From positions 928,001-992,000 of the forward strand of contig CAVUZH010000003.1 of NCBI GenBank assembly GCA_963745835.1: 64,000 nucleotides of DNA. The letters run 5' to 3'. Source of the DNA: an uncultured delta proteobacterium. Lineage in GTDB: Bacteria; Desulfobacterota; Binatia; UBA9968. The position numbers and the translations under genes were made by a program. Of this stretch, positions 17,422 to 31,593 are shown piece by piece (within the stretch, counting starts at the first letter, position 1; every line of letters starts with the position of its first letter). The notes beneath the pieces are model-generated. The model was not told the origin of the DNA. It worked only from the letters and a program-made list of their open reading frames with translations, and searched no databases.

Positions 17422-18237
17422 TCAATCGTAAGACAAATGCTTCCGGTAGATGTCGGTTCTGCGGTTCTGCAGGAGCGGCAGCTTTGCGCGGGTGTCGTGA
17501 ACTAAATTAAAGTCGATCTCAATGATTTCGACGCCTTCTCGCTCGCCAAGATCCACTACTGTCCGGCCTAACGGATCGACGATCATGCTGCGACCAATGT
17601 AGATATTGCCCACCTGATCCGGCGCGATGACGTAGCAGCCGCTTTCGAGAGCTCGGGCGCGGATCATGGTTTGCCAGTGATCCACTTTCAATTCGCCTTG
17701 CACCCAACCAGACGGCGCGAGCAGTATGTTGGCTCCTGATAAACTCAGCATGCGCCCCATCTCGGGGAATCGAAGATCATAGCAGATCATCATGCCGTAA
17801 CAGCCATCCTCGAACGTCACCGGCGCTGTCAGGTCGACGCCAGCGGCAAATTTGTCGGACTCGCGGAAACCGAAGGCGTCGTACAAGTGCAGCTTGCGGT
17901 AAACAGCCGCGATATTGCCCTCAGTATCGATCCACAGAGCGCTGTCGTATACACGATCAGGAATAGAGCAGGTCTCGTAGATCGTCGCTACGATCGCGGT
18001 ACGCGTTGCTTTAGCCGCTTCCTTCAGTGTTGTTACAAAATTGCCTTGAAGCGGCTCGGCAACTTGGGCGAGCTCCTTAGCTGTTTGACTGGCCGGTGAA
18101 AACGCCATTAAGAATTCGGGAAAGACAACCAGATCGGCGCCACCGCTGTTGCTATCTTTGACCAGCTCGAGAGCTCTGCGTAGATTTTCTCTTTTTTCCG
18201 TTGAGGACTGGATTTGGACGATGGCCACTTTGCTCAT
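17422..18237 (-). CDS. carbon-nitrogen hydrolase (Nit1/deaminated-glutathione amidase-like)
   Basis: VFPE, YRKLHLYD and ICYDLRFPE give the catalytic E-K-C triad. Confidence 0.9.
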   Translation of the reverse strand: MSKVAIVQIQSSTEKRENLRRALELVKDSNSGGADLVVFPEFLMAFSPASQTAKELAQVAEPLQGNFVTTLKEAAKATRTAIVATIYETCSIPDRVYDSALWIDTEGNIAAVYRKLHLYDAFGFRESDKFAAGVDLTAPVTFEDGCYGMMICYDLRFPEMGRMLSLSGANILLAPSGWVQGELKVDHWQTMIRARALESGCYVIAPDQVGNIYIGRSMIVDPLGRTVVDLGEREGVEIIEIDFNLVHDTRAKLPLLQNRRTDIYRKHLSYD

Positions 18238-18330: not shown

Positions 18331-19386
18331 TCACACCTCAAGCTTTTGCCCTGCCTGTTTTTTCTTTGCTTTCTCTAAAACCAACGCACCTAAAGCCACA
18401 TCGGCGACGCCTTGGCCGGCATTGTTCTTGTATAGACTGATCTGGTCGGCGTGGGTTCGACCGTCATCTTGGCCGGCCAGGATGGCGCCGATCTCAATCA
18501 ACTGTTCCCATTTGATGACGCCACGGTTGATCGGATCGAAGATATCGGCCTGCTCGTCCTGGATCGCCTGTTGAACTGAAACGATGCCCCGCACGTGACT
18601 GCGCGCGAGGGTGGCGTCGTCGATCTCACGCCGTTTGGCGGCGGTAAAGCCGCCCTTCACCAAACCGACATTACTGCCGACAATGGTCGTGACATGCTGG
18701 CCTGGCTCGAGCCAATTGCCGTCAAATACCGGAACGCTCGAGTTCGTTGCCGCTAATATGATGTCTACTCCGCGAACCGCCTCCTGTGGCGACGATACCG
18801 GTGTAATGTTGAGATTTGTCAGTGGCTCCATCTCTTCGGCGAATCGTTTGCGGTTCTCCGGATTGCGACTATAAACCTTCACATTTTTGAGCTTGCGGAC
18901 TTGCATGAGCGCAAGCAGGTGGTTTTTTGCCTGACCGGCCGCGCCAAAAATGCCAAGGGTTGAAGCGTCCTGGCGCGCCAACAAATCGGTCCCCACCGCG
19001 CTGGTGGCCGCCGTGCGCAGGCCGGTTACGGCAATGTTGTTGGGCAGCTCCGAACAGGTGATCTCACCGATAATGATTCCTTTGAGCTCGCCTTCGGCGG
19101 CATCGTAGAGCACGATTACCGGATGGTTGAGCCGCGGATAAACCTGCTCTTCGGCCATGGGTTTGACCCATTCGCAATGGGTCATCAGGCCAGTGGCTCC
19201 CGCTGCCGGGACGCCACCCTGATGCACGCTTACACGCACACCGGTGGGAATGTGAATCCGCCGCCGTGGCGCATTTAGCTGAGGATTCTCGCCCCACTCA
19301 CGAAAACCTGTGCGAACCGCTTCGACGGCTTCCGCCATTGTCACAATACCTCTGATTTCGTGCGGGCTGACGAGGAAGGTTTCCAT
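18331..19386 (-). CDS. ornithine cyclodeaminase/mu-crystallin family protein
   Basis: TGLRTAATSAV, GIFGAAGQA, DIILAATNS, GQGVADVA. Confidence 0.88.
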   Translation of the reverse strand: METFLVSPHEIRGIVTMAEAVEAVRTGFREWGENPQLNAPRRRIHIPTGVRVSVHQGGVPAAGATGLMTHCEWVKPMAEEQVYPRLNHPVIVLYDAAEGELKGIIIGEITCSELPNNIAVTGLRTAATSAVGTDLLARQDASTLGIFGAAGQAKNHLLALMQVRKLKNVKVYSRNPENRKRFAEEMEPLTNLNITPVSSPQEAVRGVDIILAATNSSVPVFDGNWLEPGQHVTTIVGSNVGLVKGGFTAAKRREIDDATLARSHVRGIVSVQQAIQDEQADIFDPINRGVIKWEQLIEIGAILAGQDDGRTHADQISLYKNNAGQGVADVALGALVLEKAKKKQAGQKLEV

Positions 19387-19424: not shown

Positions 19425-19985
19425 TTATAATGTGCAGGCTACGGCGGGACGGGCCAGGAGTTCCTCTCCCCAACGCTGTAGGTTCGGGTAGTTATCGTCG
19501 ATAGGGACGCCGTATCTGTGGCGCCGCGCGTAAAAAGGAATGAAGGAAACATCGGCTAGCGAATAGTCGCCGACAATGAAACGCTTGCCGGCCATTTCCT
19601 TTTCGAGGGTACTGAGATGCTGCTGCAGAAGTTGCAGTGCTCTATCGGGCTCGCGATCGTGGGTGATATCGCTGGCCGCCGGGTGAACGCGACTGTTTAG
19701 GAAGTCGATCCAGATCCTCGCTTTAGCCCTTTGCAACGCATTCTTCGGAAGCAGCGTTAACTCGTTAAATTTTTCATCGAGATACTCGTTGATGATCGCG
19801 GATTCGTAAATCACCCCGGCGCCGTCGACAAGCACCGGAACTTTGGCATAAGGATTCAGCTCGAGCAAATCCTTCGGTTTGTTTTTCAAATTGACTTCCA
19901 CGAGCTCATACGAAATCTTCTTTTCAGAAAGGACAATCCTTGTCCTGTGCGCATAAGGTCAGGTATGACAGGAATACAGTTTCAC
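19425..19985 (-). CDS. glutathione S-transferase family selenoprotein (in-frame UGA at codon 9, CHTU-PYA)
   Basis: GGAGG RBS and GTG at 19985 give MKLYSCHT*PYAHRTRIVLSEKKISYEL, in frame with the tracked ORF 19425-19901 (LNPYAKVPVL, IYESAIINEYLDE). TGA at 19961-19959. Confidence 0.85.
19930..19946 (-). promoter_or_regulatory. bacterial SECIS-like hairpin
   Basis: AGGACAA-GGA-TTGTCCT (7-bp stem, G-starting loop) begins 12 nt after the UGA. Confidence 0.75.
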
Positions 19986-20108
19986 GGGATACCTCCTTTG
20001 TTGAGGTCCATATCAACTGGGTGCAAATCGTTCAAGTCGTTGAAGCAAAGCAAATTGCCGGATAAGCAGATGAAAGTGCTCATTGTTGCTTGGAATGTTA
20101 GAACGCGT

Positions 20109-20917
20109 TCATCGATTTGCCGATTGAAGCCGATTCTGCAAAGCGTCGCCCAACAGGTTGAGGCTCAATACCGTAAGCATGATTGCCAAACCCGGGTAGG
20201 TTGTCAGATGGGGCGCTACCAGTAGAAATTGCCTTCCTTCATTCAGCATCGAACCCCACGAAGCGGTCGGCGGTTCAACGCCTAAACCTAAAAAGCTCAG
20301 ACTTCCTTCGGCTGTTATCGCCGCTGCCAGGCCGAAGGTCGCTTGTATGAGAAGCAGCGGAAGAAGGTTGGGAATTAAATGAAAGATGATGACCCGGGCG
20401 GGGCTGCAGCCTAGGGCGCGCGCTGCCTGGACATACTCCTGTCCTCTTGAGCTCAGAATTTCCCCGCGGACCAGCCGCGCGTAACCGGTCCAGCCGATCA
20501 GGCAGAGCGCAAGGATTACATGATCAAGGCCGGGTCCCAACAGGGCAGTAAAAGCGATGGCAAGAAGAATGCCGGGAAACGCCAGCAGAATATCCACGGA
20601 GCGCATGAGCAGTTGATCGATCCAGCCGCCGAAATAACCGGAGACCGAGCCGATGAAGAGCGCCGATGGAAATTGATACTCCCACTGTACTGACGCCGAC
20701 CAGGAGAGAGATGCGGCTACCGAATATCGTTCGACTCAATATATCCCGACCCAGTTTGTCCGTTCCGAGCGGATGATCGGGAGTAAACACCCTCAGGTCA
20801 TTCCCCAGGTTTTGCCGGTTTGGATCGTATGGCGCAAGCTTTGGAGCAAACATCGCACACGCAACTATTAAGCGCCACTAACATGGCGCCAACGTAGATC
20901 CAAAAATTATGGCTCAT
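20109..20917 (-). CDS. peptide/nickel ABC permease (OppC/DppC-like); two frameshifts near 20860 and 20660
   Basis: MSHNFWIYVG, then HPLGTDKLGRDILSR, then ILLAFPGILLA...EYVQAARALG are found across three frames. Confidence 0.8.
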
Positions 20918-21830
20918 AGCTGATGCGAGGATCGATGGCGCTGTAAGTAAGGTCAGTGATAAAATTGACAACGAGATATCCGATGGCGACAACCAACACA
21001 CAACCTTGCACGAGCGGATAGTCGCGTGTCTGGATGGCTTGGACGGTGAGCCGGCCAATTCCAGGCCAAGAGAATATCGTTTCGGTAATAATCGAGCCGG
21101 CGAGAAGCGAGCCAAACTGCAGGCCCATGATGGATACGACCGGTATCAAGGCATTGCGCAGCATGTGTTTCAACCAAACTACCGGCTCGCCAAGCCCTTT
21201 GGCGCGCGCGGTTTTAATAAAATCCAAGTTGACGATACTCAACAGGCTGCTGCGCAGGATGCGCGTAAGAATGGCCGCCATCGCCATTCCCAGTGTGATC
21301 GACGGCAAAATCAGGTGTGGAAAGGCGCCACGGCCGGAGACTGGCAGCCAACCGAGTTGAATCGAAACCAGTATCATCAGCATTGGACCCAACCAGAAGT
21401 TTGGCATTGAAAGCCCCAGAAGCGAGAAAAACAGCGCCAAACGGTCAATCCAAGTGCCGGGTTTAAAAGCGGCGAGTGTCGCAAGCGGAAATGCAATGAC
21501 CATCGCGGCGATCATGGCGCAGATCGTCAGTTGGAAAGTGGCCGGCAACCGTGCGGCAATGAGTTTGCTAACTTCGGCGTTCTCGTAAAGAGAATATCCC
21601 AAATCACCACGCGACAGATCGACGAGAAATCCGGTGTAACGAGTCAGCAGAGGCTGATCGAGACCGAGCTGGCGGCGTAGTTCTTCTTTGTCGGCGGCAT
21701 TGGCAGTCTCTCCAAGCATCACTTCCACCGGATCTCCGGGAACAAGATTGATCAGGAAAAAAACCAAGGTCAACGCGCCAAATAGTGTCGGAAGCAGCAA
21801 CAGCAGTCTATTTACAAAGTGTCGCTTCAC
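20907..21830 (-). CDS. peptide/nickel ABC permease (OppB/DppB-like)
   Basis: LVPGDPV, FIKTARAKGL, ETIFSWPGIG, RDYPLVQG. GTG start overlaps the SBP stop codon. Confidence 0.9.
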   Translation of the reverse strand: MKRHFVNRLLLLLPTLFGALTLVFFLINLVPGDPVEVMLGETANAADKEELRRQLGLDQPLLTRYTGFLVDLSRGDLGYSLYENAEVSKLIAARLPATFQLTICAMIAAMVIAFPLATLAAFKPGTWIDRLALFFSLLGLSMPNFWLGPMLMILVSIQLGWLPVSGRGAFPHLILPSITLGMAMAAILTRILRSSLLSIVNLDFIKTARAKGLGEPVVWLKHMLRNALIPVVSIMGLQFGSLLAGSIITETIFSWPGIGRLTVQAIQTRDYPLVQGCVLVVAIGYLVVNFITDLTYSAIDPRISYEP

Positions 21831-23407
21831 TGGAGGTGCGGCGCCTGGCGGAGTGATGTGCGTCTCAACGAGAACAAATCGCCGTCCGGAGAGGGCGTAA
21901 AGCCAACAATCTCGGGCTTGCGCACGACTACGTTCTTCACCCACCACAGCGGAATATACGGTAGATCTTCATGGATTATTTGCTGCACCTGGTGGTACAG
22001 CCCTTTTCGTCGTCCTAGATCAGACTCCCGCCGGCCCTGTTCGAGCAAGTTATCAATGCTAGGACTATTATAGCCGCCGCGATTATCGCCGTTAGGAGGT
22101 AGGCTCGACGAATGGAAGATGTTGTAATAAACGTCTGGGTCAGCTATGCCGACCCAAGCGAGCGAGTAAAGATGAAAGTTGCCTTTTTTGATATCGCTGT
22201 AAAACGTTCCCCACTCATAAGAGCGCACTTCGAGCTCGACCCCGACACGGCTTAATTGCTCTTTCAACGTCTCGGCAATTCTTCTGCGCAGATCGATGTT
22301 CGTGGTCTTAAAAGATAGCTTAAAGCGCGGCCGCGGACCCTCTCCATCGGGATCCGGATATCCCGCCTGGTCCAAAAGCCGCTGGGCTTTGGCGGGATCA
22401 AAAGGCCAACGCGGAACAGAGTCGTCGTGCGCCCAGTTAAGCGGGGAAAGCAGCCCATTGGCGGCTGTCGCCTGGTCTTTGAGGATGTGCCGGATAATGC
22501 CGTCGCGATCGATGGAGTGGGCCAATGCCTGCCTGACCTCTCGGCGTTTCAGTATGGGATGTGTGAGATTTATGCCGATGTACTGAAACGTAGTTCCCGG
22601 GTTGGTCTCGACGATTGCATCGGTATTCTTTTCCAGCCATGGAAGAGTGTCGGGCTCGATATCGTTCTGCAAAAGCTGGATGGTTCCTTTTTTGAACTCT
22701 AAAACTCGAACAATGGCATCAGGCACAATTTGAAACGCCAGGCCTGCCAAGCGAGGTTTGCCCTCCCAGTAGGATGAGTTTGCTTTCAGATACACTTTCT
22801 CTCCTAAATTGATGCCTGCCAGCGCAAATGGACCGGAACCGGATGGTGCCTGGTGACTGCGATTCTCCCCCGGCGTCTCATTGTCAACTGGTACTATCCC
22901 AATCGTGCAGTGCTCAAGAAAAGGCGCGTGCGGCTCGGATAGATGAAAGCGGATCTTTTGCGTTCCTAGCTGCTCAACGGATTTTAGAACCCGCAGAGGC
23001 CCGCGTTTCGGCGAACGATTGCGACGATCCATGATCGAATCATAGGTAAACTTGACGTCGCGGGCTGTCAGGGCTCTGCCGTCGTGGAAGGTGACCCCGC
23101 TACGAATTTGGAAGTCATAGGTTTGTGCATCGATTCCCGTCCACTGTTCGGCGAGGTCTCCCACCAAGCGCGATTTCTCATCCAGGCGGAGAAGCGAACT
23201 ATAGATTAACGAGCTGATGCGAGCAGAGTTTGCGTCGGTAGCATAGCGCGGATCTAGATTCCCCGGGTTGCTCTCGATTCCAATCACCAAATAATCTAAA
23301 GGGGTTTTGGCTTCGGATCCGACCCTACAGCCGGCAAGTAAGGTGACGATGATCGTCCGTAAGCAAAAGCAACAAACTTTCGAAGCAGACAACTTGAAAA
23401 GTCTCAC
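21827..23407 (-). CDS. ABC substrate-binding lipoprotein, family 5 (OppA/DppA-like)
   Basis: Lipobox LLAGC, FHDGRALTARDVKFT, GSGPF, VRQALAHSIDR. Confidence 0.9.
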   Translation of the reverse strand: MRLFKLSASKVCCFCLRTIIVTLLAGCRVGSEAKTPLDYLVIGIESNPGNLDPRYATDANSARISSLIYSSLLRLDEKSRLVGDLAEQWTGIDAQTYDFQIRSGVTFHDGRALTARDVKFTYDSIMDRRNRSPKRGPLRVLKSVEQLGTQKIRFHLSEPHAPFLEHCTIGIVPVDNETPGENRSHQAPSGSGPFALAGINLGEKVYLKANSSYWEGKPRLAGLAFQIVPDAIVRVLEFKKGTIQLLQNDIEPDTLPWLEKNTDAIVETNPGTTFQYIGINLTHPILKRREVRQALAHSIDRDGIIRHILKDQATAANGLLSPLNWAHDDSVPRWPFDPAKAQRLLDQAGYPDPDGEGPRPRFKLSFKTTNIDLRRRIAETLKEQLSRVGVELEVRSYEWGTFYSDIKKGNFHLYSLAWVGIADPDVYYNIFHSSSLPPNGDNRGGYNSPSIDNLLEQGRRESDLGRRKGLYHQVQQIIHEDLPYIPLWWVKNVVVRKPEIVGFTPSPDGDLFSLRRTSLRQAPHLQ

Positions 23408-30077: not shown

Positions 30078-30626
30078 CTAACTGCCTTTGTTGACCTTTT
30101 TAACTTCGGCAAGCAACTCTTCAGTGGAGAGAAGATCCTTCGGCCCATTGCTCGGACGGACGTTGAAGTAACGTACCACGCCCTCCTTATCGATAATAAT
30201 GTATGAACGCTTCGCTTGACGTCTTTCTTGGTCGAAAACGCCGAACGTCGTCATGGTTTTTCCGCTTGCATCGCTGAGTAGCGGGTAATTGATCTTGGCG
30301 AAATCGGCAAAGGCCTTCTGTGAGAAGGGGCTGTTAACACTAATTCCCAAGACTTCGGTATTTTCCGCTTGAAACTGCTGGTAGTTGTCCGAACCGGACG
30401 CTTGCAGATCCTGTATTCAGGTAGGACTAAAGTCCAGAACGTAAAAGTTGATAAGAACATTCTTGCCCTTGAGACTACTCAACTTTAGTTTGCCGCCTTT
30501 GCTGCTCTCAAGCTCAAAGTCAGGCGCCTTATCGCCGACCTCGAGCGCCGGTGCTACGGAACTTGCGCCGACAATCACAGCTATTGCTATCGCCAATGAA
30601 AACATGAATTTTTCGGTTGATTTCAT
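30078..30626 (-). CDS. exported AhpC/TSA (AhpE/BCP-like) peroxiredoxin selenoprotein (in-frame UGA at codon 70)
   Basis: GGAGGA RBS, ATG 30626, signal peptide, LEVGDKAPDFEL...FYVLDFSPT*IQDLQ. The two tracked ORFs 30417-30659 and 30078-30350 share one frame and are separated only by TGA 30419-30417. Confidence 0.88.
30387..30399 (-). promoter_or_regulatory. bacterial SECIS-like hairpin
   Basis: GTCCG-GTT-CGGAC begins 17 nt after the UGA, and its loop starts with GU. Confidence 0.65.
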
Positions 30627-30990
30627 AACTTCCTCCTTTTGACGAAAACTTCTGGTCAATATTCGTAAAATTTACCGCTTTATCTCTCAGTTCATGGGTA
30701 CTGTCAACTGCAACAAGAGAACAAGTATGTGTTGATGTTCATGGGGCGCTTTAGTTGATTGACGGAGGTGAGAGAACTAATCCCACTCGCCGATCGTTAA
30801 CACATGCGATCCTGTGAGACAGCCGGACGATATGACGGAATTCTAAGGCCCGAATGCGCTCTTTCGCCGTATATGCTGAGAACGTTACCAAGTAACCTAT
30901 GTCACGGCGATGATGCGCCGACTAAAGTCCAAAGTCACTTTCCGAAGTCACCAACTCGATGGCAAGAGCGCTCTAAGAAGACTGGCCGAA

Positions 30991-31593
30991 TTAGAGAATC
31001 GCCTTGATCGCGGATCGTTGTTTCATTCGCTCGACATAGCTTGCCAACCGCGGCAGCGACTTATCCGGCAATACGCCGAAACCTTCGAGCCGAATAAAGC
31101 GGGGAATCAGGGCTGCGTCGGCAAGTGAAAAATCTCCTACCAAGTAGGATTGATCGCCGATCTCATTCTCCAGTCTTTGCAGCATTCTTCTAAGCTCGGT
31201 CTGCGCCCCCGCGATCACATCCTTATTTTGTTCCTTCTCATCTTTCACCATTTCCATGCGTAGTTTTTGATATTGACCCTCCAGATGGGTTAATCCGTAA
31301 TCGGTCAAGATGCGAGCTTTGGCTTTTTTAGCGGGGTCCTGCGGCATGAGGGGCGGTGTTGGATATTTCTCGTCAAGGTATTCATTGATGATACAGGATT
31401 CATACAACACCGTGTCGCCATCAGTGATCACGGGGACTTTTCCATTTGGATTCAGTTTGAGGAATTCAGGCGTTTTTTGCGCATGCGCTCTCAGGTCAAC
31501 GGGAACTGTTTCGTAAGGCAGATTTTTTTCCGCCAGAACAACCCGTACCCGTTGGCAATTAGGTGACGACTTAAAATCATATAGCTTGATCAT
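30991..31593 (-). CDS. glutathione S-transferase family protein
   Basis: KLYDFKSSPNCQRVR, LNPNGKVPV, LYESCIINEYLDE. Confidence 0.92.
   Translation of the reverse strand: MIKLYDFKSSPNCQRVRVVLAEKNLPYETVPVDLRAHAQKTPEFLKLNPNGKVPVITDGDTVLYESCIINEYLDEKYPTPPLMPQDPAKKAKARILTDYGLTHLEGQYQKLRMEMVKDEKEQNKDVIAGAQTELRRMLQRLENEIGDQSYLVGDFSLADAALIPRFIRLEGFGVLPDKSLPRLASYVERMKQRSAIKAIL

Follow-up and report, generated by a model that had tools for sequence, protein, structure and literature searches.

Selenoproteins with a glutathione S-transferase (GST) domain have been catalogued since 2005. 'Glutathione S-transferase' appeared as a new selenoprotein family, with 4 sequences, in the Sargasso Sea study of that year (PMC1088965) and again, with 12 sequences, in the Global Ocean Sampling (GOS) study of 2008 (PMC2398784). 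The available portions of two reviews, from 2022 and 2026, list the family as 'GST-like', with one selenocysteine (Sec), no redox motif, and an uncharacterized function (PMC9312934, PMC13188914), and the later one says of the functions that they 'remain largely uncharacterized' (PMC13188914). In the present work, we analyzed a 64,000-nucleotide stretch of DNA from an uncultured soil Binatia bacterium (here named the window; contig CAVUZH010000003.1, positions 928,001 to 992,000), the minus strand of which, at 19985..19425, very probably encodes a cytosolic GST-fold selenoenzyme of 186 residues (here named Sec-GST).

Judged by its sequence, this appears to be a genuine selenoprotein gene that is mis-called by standard annotation. 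An initial annotation, made from the nucleotides of the window, had described the protein as a hidden selenoprotein. That it is hidden, or of a new kind, does not stand in view of the families published in 2005 and 2008 (PMC1088965, PMC2398784), and, as far as the available portions of these sources extend, Sec-GST belongs to an already catalogued, biochemically uncharacterized kind. The accompanying remark that no biochemistry of such a protein was known agrees with the accessible text of the 2026 review, with its 'remain largely uncharacterized' (PMC13188914). A literature search on Sec-containing bacterial glutathione transferases likewise gave no characterized natural Sec-GST among the matches listed, and no paper joining Binatia and selenocysteine was found.

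Reading frame and conservation of the in-frame TGA

The Sec-GST frame lies on the minus strand and comprises 186 residues when TGA is read as selenocysteine (U). Its elements are the following.

19999-19992, minus strand: Shine-Dalgarno-like sequence AAAGGAGG, 6 nt upstream of the GTG start
19985-19983, minus strand: GTG start codon of Sec-GST
19425..19985, minus strand: full Sec-GST coding sequence with GTG start, Sec as residue 9, and TAA stop, translated with TGA=U
19961-19959, minus strand: in-frame TGA, codon 9, predicted to be read as selenocysteine
19946-19930, minus strand: hairpin AGGACAA-GGA-TTGTCCT of the bacterial selenocysteine insertion sequence (bSECIS) type, with a perfect 7-bp stem AGGACAA/UUGUCCU and the loop GGA, starting 12 nt after the TGA
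19427-19425, minus strand: TAA stop of Sec-GST, the frame being open from the TGA to here
19425..19901, minus strand: truncated 158-aa open reading frame (ORF) from table-11 ORF calling, starting at an internal GTG (Val29)

The start codon is followed by AAA CTG TAT TCC TGT CAT ACC, the TGA, and CCT TAT GCG CAC, after which the hairpin begins; the N terminus reads VKLYSCHTUPYAHRTRIVL (with the GTG start shown as V, or as M in the initiator reading). The initial annotation had described a ribosome binding site (RBS), a GTG, the peptide MKLYSCHT-TGA-PYAHRTRIVL in frame with a GST, and the perfect 7-bp hairpin 12 nt after the UGA, and each of these was found in its place. The Shine-Dalgarno-like AAAGGAGG is identical in same-genus orthologues. 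Pfam GST_N_3 matches residues 3 to 75 (E = 8.9e-22; PF13409, 77.1 bits against a cut-off of 25) of this protein with its single TGA, and GST_C matches residues 108 to 180. Since the GST_N_3 match begins at residue 3, the domain takes in the eight codons that precede the TGA.

That gene callers truncate Sec-GST, as had been suspected, is strongly supported. Table 11 returns the 158-aa ORF, and 118 of the 120 best database homologues are N-truncated (136 to 170 aa), the other two being 186-aa Cys forms. Reading the TGA as Sec corrects a systematic error by which these 118 nearest database proteins are left without the active site.

The TGA followed by P-[Y/F]-A-H-R-T-R-[I/L]-V-L was present in all 40 orthologue loci that were fetched, with the column read directly. 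A scan of named genome records matched 592 stretches, of which 575 were confirmed as relatives; among the best 80 of these 575, 79 have TGA at the Sec column (78 by pattern plus L072, which reads U-S-Y-A-H). The sole exception, L075, from a species of a related genus, carries TGT (Cys) and lacks the hairpin. Furthermore, 41 related genomes were searched, among them the unpublished G012 and G018. Residue 9 is covered by 45 matches with 52% identity or more, each of which has exactly one TGA, and four further partial matches stop short of this residue. A TGA-bearing copy occurs in 39 of the 41 genomes; of the other two, the match in G010 is cut by a contig end and G036 has no match. Down to 52% protein identity, the TGA is kept together with the eight codons before it and the position of the RBS.

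The search was extended to the whole order with the Cys form P0013 as the query. Matches at E <= 1e-75 were obtained in 59 of 123 genomes (a tally that includes the unpublished G012 and G289), and 70 of the 71 matches have one TGA, while one has none. Among 200 other genomes sampled from the rest of the phylum, none matched at E <= 1e-58, a scope that leaves remoter Sec-GSTs aside; in this sample the subfamily was not found outside the order. UGA-containing orthologues are thus found in other organisms, and the in-frame UGA aligns with the Cys of homologues: Cys occupies the Sec column in P0005, P0013, and L075 as well as in the solved SspA-like GSTs 6v91, 4qq7, and 4hoj. The latter bear out the proposal that U9 stands at the active site of Cys-type GSTs.

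Twenty public runs from 10 studies, all of soil and rhizosphere metagenomes, contain the stretch in whole or in part. In contigs of two independent DNA studies, 19959-19961 and the hairpin are identical to the window sequence. Contigs of two RNA-library studies (97% and 95 to 98% alike), which derive from close relatives, span stop, TGA, and start, again with the TGA kept.

The downstream hairpin and the selenocysteine machinery

The criteria for bSECIS elements in the available portion of the 2026 review comprise an apical loop of 3 to 9 nt, a stem of 4 to 16 bp, a G in the first two loop positions, 16 to 37 nt from the UGA to the loop, and a minimum free energy of <= -7.5 kcal/mol (PMC13188914). 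With a 3-nt loop beginning GG, a 7-bp stem, and a spacing of 19 nt from the UGA to the loop, the window hairpin lies within all four geometric limits. Folded with ViennaRNA, the hairpin alone has -6.6 kcal/mol, a value equaled by 1 of 200 shuffles; for the 42 nt that begin at the UGA it is -7.2 kcal/mol, equaled by 57 of 200 shuffles. As the hairpin is modest in the single sequence, the case rests on conservation across genomes. A larger fold of 66 nt includes an outer stem (-17.2 kcal/mol, z -2.0); as judged by eye, the outer pairing is not kept outside the genus, and this fold was set aside.

For comparison, 114 TGA-bearing loci were reduced to 93 distinct 147-nt stretches; four loci from unpublished genomes were omitted, and L077 and L129 (both from G289) are among the 93. 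Counted over the sequences with the majority amino acid, codons +5 to +9 after the TGA are nearly frozen.

Codon +5: AGG in 88/93
Codon +6: ACA in 84/93
Codon +7: AGG in 93/93
Codon +8: ATT in 58/60
Codon +9: GTC in 93/93

The synonymous entropy at these five hairpin codons is 0.00 to 0.51 bit, versus 0.5 to 2.25 bit at the other codons from +1 to +40 (e.g., Pro+1, 1.57; Ala+3, 1.62; Leu+31, 2.25; and Val+40, 1.45 bit), and the codons flanking the hairpin use 2 to 6 synonyms. The hairpin is under selection at the RNA level, and synonymous freezing is confined to it.

Pairing was scored on an alignment of 87 columns and 92 distinct rows (A2), in which the 7-bp helix is paired in 98.1% of cells, compared to 29 to 46% when the 3' partners are slid. 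Five of the seven stem pairs never vary. Pair 1 is unpaired in 5 rows, and pair 6 is A-U in 83 rows, G-C in 1, U-A in 1, and unpaired in 7, the two compensatory cells occurring here. The loop reads GGA in sequences that encode Ile and GGC in those that encode Leu. RNAalifold retained only 4 invariant pairs on the 93 sequences; without covariation, the structural support comes from invariance and not from compensatory change. The Cys form L075 encodes the same peptide HRTRIVL via AGA ACA CGA ATC GTC CTG and forms no hairpin (-5.6 kcal/mol, z +0.33). It differs from its Sec-bearing sister L071 at 74 of 561 bases, 4 of them within the 17-nt hairpin. Taken together, these comparisons of sequences strongly support the hairpin as a putative bacterial SECIS just 3' of the UGA.

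The genome that contains the window (G000) has selA, selB, and selD together on one contig (C22), all above curated cut-offs, as well as a tRNA-Sec with 74 bits against RF01852 and the anticodon TCA as determined by ARAGORN. Among the relatives, selA was found in 39 of 41. In G000, TGA terminates 1,425 of 3,436 open frames of at least 300 codons and is the commonest terminator of long frames; it is therefore not reassigned genome-wide. Also, selD itself (C22:69235-70161, locus L010) has an in-frame TGA (G-U-A-A-K-L), followed by the hairpin GUGCAA-GUU-UUGCAC. The apex CAA-G(G/U)N-UUG is common to selD and to the hairpins of Sec-GST and of a second GST copy described below. It occurs 407 times genome-wide, 33 times with a stem of at least 6 bp; 13 of these 33 have a TGA 5 to 30 nt upstream, and only 3 of the 13 lie within long open frames, namely the two GSTs and selD.

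In-frame TGAs were further detected in FdhA and in 8 of the 15 AhpC/TSA (peroxiredoxin-like) matches of G000, which suggests a large selenoproteome. The hairpins of other Sec genes have stems of 5 to 9 bp and the loops GUU, GGC, GGC, and GUU, and start 11 to 17 nt after the UGA; those of the peroxiredoxin-like genes have GUU or GGC triloops beginning in this same range, and the loop in FdhA is GGUCU. The FdhA match shows two TGAs, the first in T-N-Q-U-E-G-R.

By analogy with the known bacterial mechanism, translation would start at the GTG, and the hairpin 12 nt past the UGA at codon 9 would act as SECIS and recruit SelB carrying Sec-tRNA(Sec), resulting in the insertion of selenocysteine instead of termination. 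The 186-aa Sec-GST with a SECIS just 3' of the UGA that had been proposed in the initial annotation is backed by the conserved TGA, the frozen hairpin, and the Sec machinery. Several of the checks proposed along with it came out in the same direction: the genome holds selA, selB, selD, and tRNA-Sec, the best 80 of 575 relatives gave 79 TGAs and one TGT without a hairpin, and the contigs of the two DNA studies keep TGA and not TGC or TGT.

Several observations weigh against this interpretation. The window hairpin is weak by energy, its -6.6 and -7.2 kcal/mol comparing with a model cut of -7.5 kcal/mol that belongs to another program, the 42-nt fold of the single sequence is no better than shuffles, and the window's clade has lost extra closing pairs that are present in most orthologues. 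Covariation is minimal: a single pair has 2 compensatory cells, and the covariation term from RNAalifold is 0. Only one Cys-form DNA control (L075) was available, and its 4 changes in the 17 hairpin nucleotides are not significantly above the overall divergence of 13% (p = 0.19). selA was not found at E <= 1e-60 in G007 or G015, both of which have a TGA-bearing GST and the latter of which is rated 100% complete; their selA may be unassembled or divergent. The estimated contamination of G000 is 9.3%, a concern that is countered by the spread of TGA-bearing selenoprotein genes over contigs C3, C14, C15, C18, C19, and C22. The RNA-library contigs prove no transcription and show no RNA ends. Finally, selenium in the polypeptide is predicted from sequence, and the chemistry and substrate discussed below are drawn only from the position of Sec and from homologues.

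Fold, active site and alternative readings

An AlphaFold2 model of Sec-GST, built from an alignment of 24 rows (A1), has a predicted local distance difference test (pLDDT) score of 89.8 and a predicted template modeling (pTM) score of 0.82. It consists of a thioredoxin-like N-domain and an all-helical C-domain, with strand 1 at residues 2 to 5 and helix 1 at residues 10 to 21. Both model and alignment show the predicted Sec9 between strand 1 and helix 1, at the N terminus of the helix, where Cys-type GSTs carry their catalytic Cys. Foldseek gave template modeling (TM) scores of 0.85 to 0.92 to GSTs with bound glutathione; SspA-like/RegF chains ranked first (TM 0.86), followed by plant Tau GSTs and human GSTO2. 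P50, E61, and S62 are invariant and V49 is nearly invariant in the 24 sequences. Following the GST literature, we take P50, E61, and S62 to belong to the glutathione site, as the cis-Pro that follows Val and the Glu-Ser that precedes helix 3. Sec-GST is matched by no dedicated NCBIfam model.

By analogy with homologues and from the position of Sec, the most likely function of Sec-GST is that of a thiol transferase or reductase that depends on glutathione. Its selenolate would attack a disulfide, a glutathionylated substrate, or another electrophile, and the resulting enzyme-Se-S-glutathione intermediate would be resolved by a second glutathione. In the window's clade, Cys6 may resolve the intermediate instead.

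The last point concerns the CxxU redox motif formed by this additional Cys, which the initial annotation had placed at the center of its functional proposal. The motif itself stood, as the window protein has C6-x-x-U9 and all same-genus orthologues have C-H/N-T-U. It did not hold as the family's active site: across the 93 distinct Sec forms, position -3 from Sec is occupied by Y (40 sequences), C (32), S (17), A (3), or T (1), and conservation across the Sec-GSTs extends instead over U-P-[Y/F]-A-H-R-T-R. Thus, CxxU appears from these sequences to be a trait of the window's clade, in which it may add an intramolecular selenylsulfide state.

A stronger version of this idea, in which Sec-GST is a CxxU dithiol-type oxidoreductase whose Cys6/Sec9 pair cycles via an intramolecular selenylsulfide, in the manner of thioredoxin-like CxxU selenoproteins, and not by a monothiol glutathione mechanism, is possible but doubtful. 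The presence of the pair in the window protein and its same-genus orthologues, the -3 Cys in 32 of 93 distinct members, and the model, in which residues 6 to 9 form the loop between strand 1 and helix 1 and the two residues are close in sequence, are consistent with it. However, Y, S, A, or T stands at -3 in 61 of the 93 distinct Sec forms, and Ser is found there in the Cys homologues P0005, P0013, and L075, which indicates that the family functions without a -3 Cys. The invariance of P50, E61, and S62, the presumed glutathione-site residues, also argues for the glutathione mechanism. The available portion of the 2026 review, moreover, gives no redox motif for GST-like selenoproteins (PMC13188914).

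The similarity to SspA raises the alternative of a non-enzymatic RNA-polymerase-associated regulator that has retained Sec by chance, which we consider quite improbable. SspA is the best NCBIfam model (equivalog NF007016, 98.8 bits), and the names stringent starvation protein A and RegF are those of the best solved homologues (E = 5e-32), yet the score is far under the SspA cut-off of 314, and Sec-GST is thus not an SspA. A costly Sec that is kept at the catalytic position throughout the order argues for chemistry, as do the Cys at this position in the closest solved homologues, crystallized with glutathione according to the titles of 4qq7 and 4hoj, and the location of the gene behind an ABC (ATP-binding cassette) transporter and ahead of metabolic enzymes.

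It is very unlikely that the TGA is a true stop, leaving either a pseudogene or only the 158-aa product from Val29, with the upstream codons and the hairpin due to chance or to other regulation. Standard ORF calling does return that product, the hairpin energy is unremarkable in the single sequence, and the adjoining permease gene is frameshifted in the assembly. Nevertheless, the 158-aa product would be without strand 1, helix 1, and the catalytic residue, and this reading is at odds with the eight upstream codons, RBS position, and TGA kept down to 52% identity, with synonymous freezing limited to the hairpin, and with the Sec machinery in the genome. Equally implausible is a selenium-free read-through of UGA codon 9, e.g., as Cys or Trp by near-cognate decoding or another code: the Cys form in a species of a related genus shows that Cys is functionally tolerated, but long frames in this genome end most often in TGA, selA/B/D are accompanied by a dedicated tRNA-Sec, and the SECIS-type hairpin is frozen only in TGA forms.

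Genomic context, relatives and comparison with known systems

Sec-GST is the fourth of six minus-strand genes in a string, the other five of which are as follows.

21827..23407, minus strand: gene 1, family-5 solute-binding protein (SBP_bac_5, 8.3e-85)
20907..21947, minus strand: gene 2, DppB/NikB/GsiC-like ABC permease (NCBIfam Opp2B, 350.1 bits against a cut-off of 350; GsiC, 307.8, below cut-off)
20109..20853, minus strand: gene 3, DppC/NikC/GsiD-like ABC permease, directly upstream of Sec-GST
18331..19386, minus strand: gene 5, ornithine cyclodeaminase/mu-crystallin family, 38 nt downstream of Sec-GST
17422..18237, minus strand: gene 6, carbon-nitrogen hydrolase (best NCBIfam model deaminated glutathione amidase, 229.8 bits, below the cut-off of 355)

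For the solute-binding protein, the NikA, Opp, DppA, and GsiB models all scored below cut-off. In the assembly, the DppC-like permease occupies two overlapping frames of 109 aa and 165 aa, and the same-genus relative L024 has it intact as a single 334-aa ORF; the split is either a frameshift mutation or an assembly indel error. Among the best 80 of the 575 loci, a DppC-like gene lies 18 to 209 nt upstream on the same strand in 50. It is found in 49 of the 57 loci with Ile in HRTR[I/L]VL and at the Cys form L075, and in none of the loci with the active site S-Y-[G/Q]-P-U. An ornithine cyclodeaminase/mu-crystallin homologue is downstream in 29 of the 57 Ile-motif loci, as seen within 1.5-kb flanks. 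This places the Sec-GSTs of the window's clade in a conserved gene string, a probable operon, behind an Opp/Nik/Gsi-type ABC transporter. The context is a lead towards a peptide- or glutathione-related substrate, from which no confident function follows. The RNA-library contigs of two studies end at 19976-19991, within 15 nt of the start codon, where DNA contigs extend further, which hints weakly at best at a transcript 5' end between the permease gene and the GST gene.

Further genes of the window and of G000 are related to Sec-GST or carry an in-frame TGA.

G000 C22:131399-131950, minus strand: second Sec-GST paralogue (L059, L141), 55% identical, with the active site F-S-Y-G-P-U
30991-31593, minus strand: GST paralogue without a stop codon, 200 aa, 40% identical to Sec-GST
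30078-30659, minus strand: second selenoprotein gene of the window, AhpC/TSA peroxiredoxin-like, 193 aa, with TGA at residue 81 (FYVLDFSPTU-IQDL)

In the second Sec-GST paralogue, the hairpin recurs with GGC as its loop and a longer stem (-15.5 kcal/mol over 63 nt). The paralogue is located on the selA-selB-selD contig, about 60 kb away, and its neighbors (response regulator, histidine kinase, amidohydrolase, and glyoxalase) give no functional clue. In the 200-aa paralogue, Ser takes the place of Sec by eye (S-S-P-N-C-Q-R in place of U-P-Y-A-H-R); it adjoins the Sec-peroxiredoxin-like gene, which has a GUCCG-GUU-CGGAC hairpin about 17 nt after its UGA. Weaker GST matches of 33 to 38% identity, each with one TGA, were seen at G009:C207, G012:C515, G017:C51, and G033:C221 (G012 being unpublished) and could represent a third Sec-GST group or read-through past a gene end. 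In one relative, a neighbor of Sec-GST (L108, ~587-620) encodes S-P-S-C-P-W-A-H-R-T; C-P-W-A is the motif of Xi-class (glutathionyl-hydroquinone reductase) GSTs.

A quick maximum-likelihood tree of 99 rows, made up of 95 Sec forms, 3 Cys forms, and an outgroup paralogue, with support from the Shimodaira-Hasegawa-like approximate likelihood ratio test (SH-aLRT) only, shows two groups, i.e., an S-Y-[G/Q]-P-U clade, which includes the second G000 copy, and the group of the window, in which -3 is C, S, T, or A. L071, L075, and P0013 were grouped together (SH-aLRT 99), and P0005 was placed elsewhere. Because Sec forms outnumber Cys forms by 95 to 3 and the Cys forms nest inside Sec clades, the simplest reading is that Sec was lost to Cys at least twice, the direction depending on the outgroup root.

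A broader picture can be drawn from these data, although it is rather unlikely to hold in all its parts. In it, the Binatia Sec-GSTs would form a subfamily of their own apart from the marine ones, one that was already present in the ancestor of the order, gave rise to two clades by duplication, and exchanged Sec for Cys on two or more occasions, with the window's clade performing an importer-linked selenium step and the hairpin defining the SelB element of the lineage. If true, an Opp/Nik/Gsi-type importer would have this clade as its catalytic partner, and their pathway would also employ a mu-crystallin-type reductase and a hydrolase that is Nit1-like (deaminated-glutathione-amidase-like). 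The selenium-dependent step would reduce or de-glutathionylate an imported glutathione-related or sulfur/selenium-bearing peptide, and the near-invariant 17-nt hairpin, with its CAA-G(G/U)N-UUG apex shared with selD, would be the recognition element of the lineage's SelB.

Compared to known systems, Sec-GST resembles the published GST-like selenoproteins (COG0625/PF13409), with which it shares the GST domain, a single in-frame UGA, a downstream stem-loop, and a record that, in the available portions of the sources, consists of sequence alone. The published members come from marine metagenomes, whereas Sec-GST is from soil and rhizosphere Binatia, and their kinship is judged by descriptions and not by sequences. 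Sec-GST is also similar to the CxxU thioredoxin-fold selenoproteins (AhpD-like and CMD-like), as the window protein has C-x-x-U at the start of helix 1. In those families, however, CxxU is the listed motif in the accessible text of the 2026 review (PMC13188914), whereas only 32 of the 93 distinct Sec-GSTs have the Cys.

The closest solved relatives are the SspA-like/RegF Cys-type GSTs of Betaproteobacteria (6v91, 4qq7, and 4hoj; E = 5e-32 to 2e-28, about 32% identity, TM 0.86). Their motif T-C-P-F-S places Cys on U9, and 4qq7 and 4hoj were solved with glutathione; they differ in having Cys instead of Sec and in their genomic context. Omega-class GSTs (human GSTO1/GSTO2; 1eem and 3q18) match over residues 1 to 184 with E = 6e-22. 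Residues 24 to 214 of GSTO1 correspond to residues 1 to 184 of Sec-GST, and the offset of the ungapped start (query 1 = chain 24) puts U9 on residue 32, which, on this offset alone, we take to be the catalytic Cys32. Omega-class enzymes act as thiol transferases or reductases via an enzyme-glutathione mixed disulfide, and this chemistry served as the working model for that proposed for Sec-GST. They differ from Sec-GST in being eukaryotic, in using Cys instead of Sec, and in an N-terminal extension of about 20 residues that Sec-GST lacks.

Sec-GST leaves the knowledge of recoding unchanged; it is a clean and tractable example and comes as no surprise. With it, an uncultured soil Binatia lineage that is apparently rich in selenoproteins gains a further, well-supported one. 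What the present analysis adds to the described systems is the Binatia lineage itself, the order-wide conservation, the two clades, the frozen 17-nt SECIS, the natural Sec/Cys sister pair, and the linkage to an ABC transporter. With naturally occurring Sec and Cys forms in sister species, an unusually simple and conserved SECIS, and an operon context that can direct the search for a substrate, the family is a tractable case, and one that opens the question of what selenium buys a GST-fold thiol transferase.

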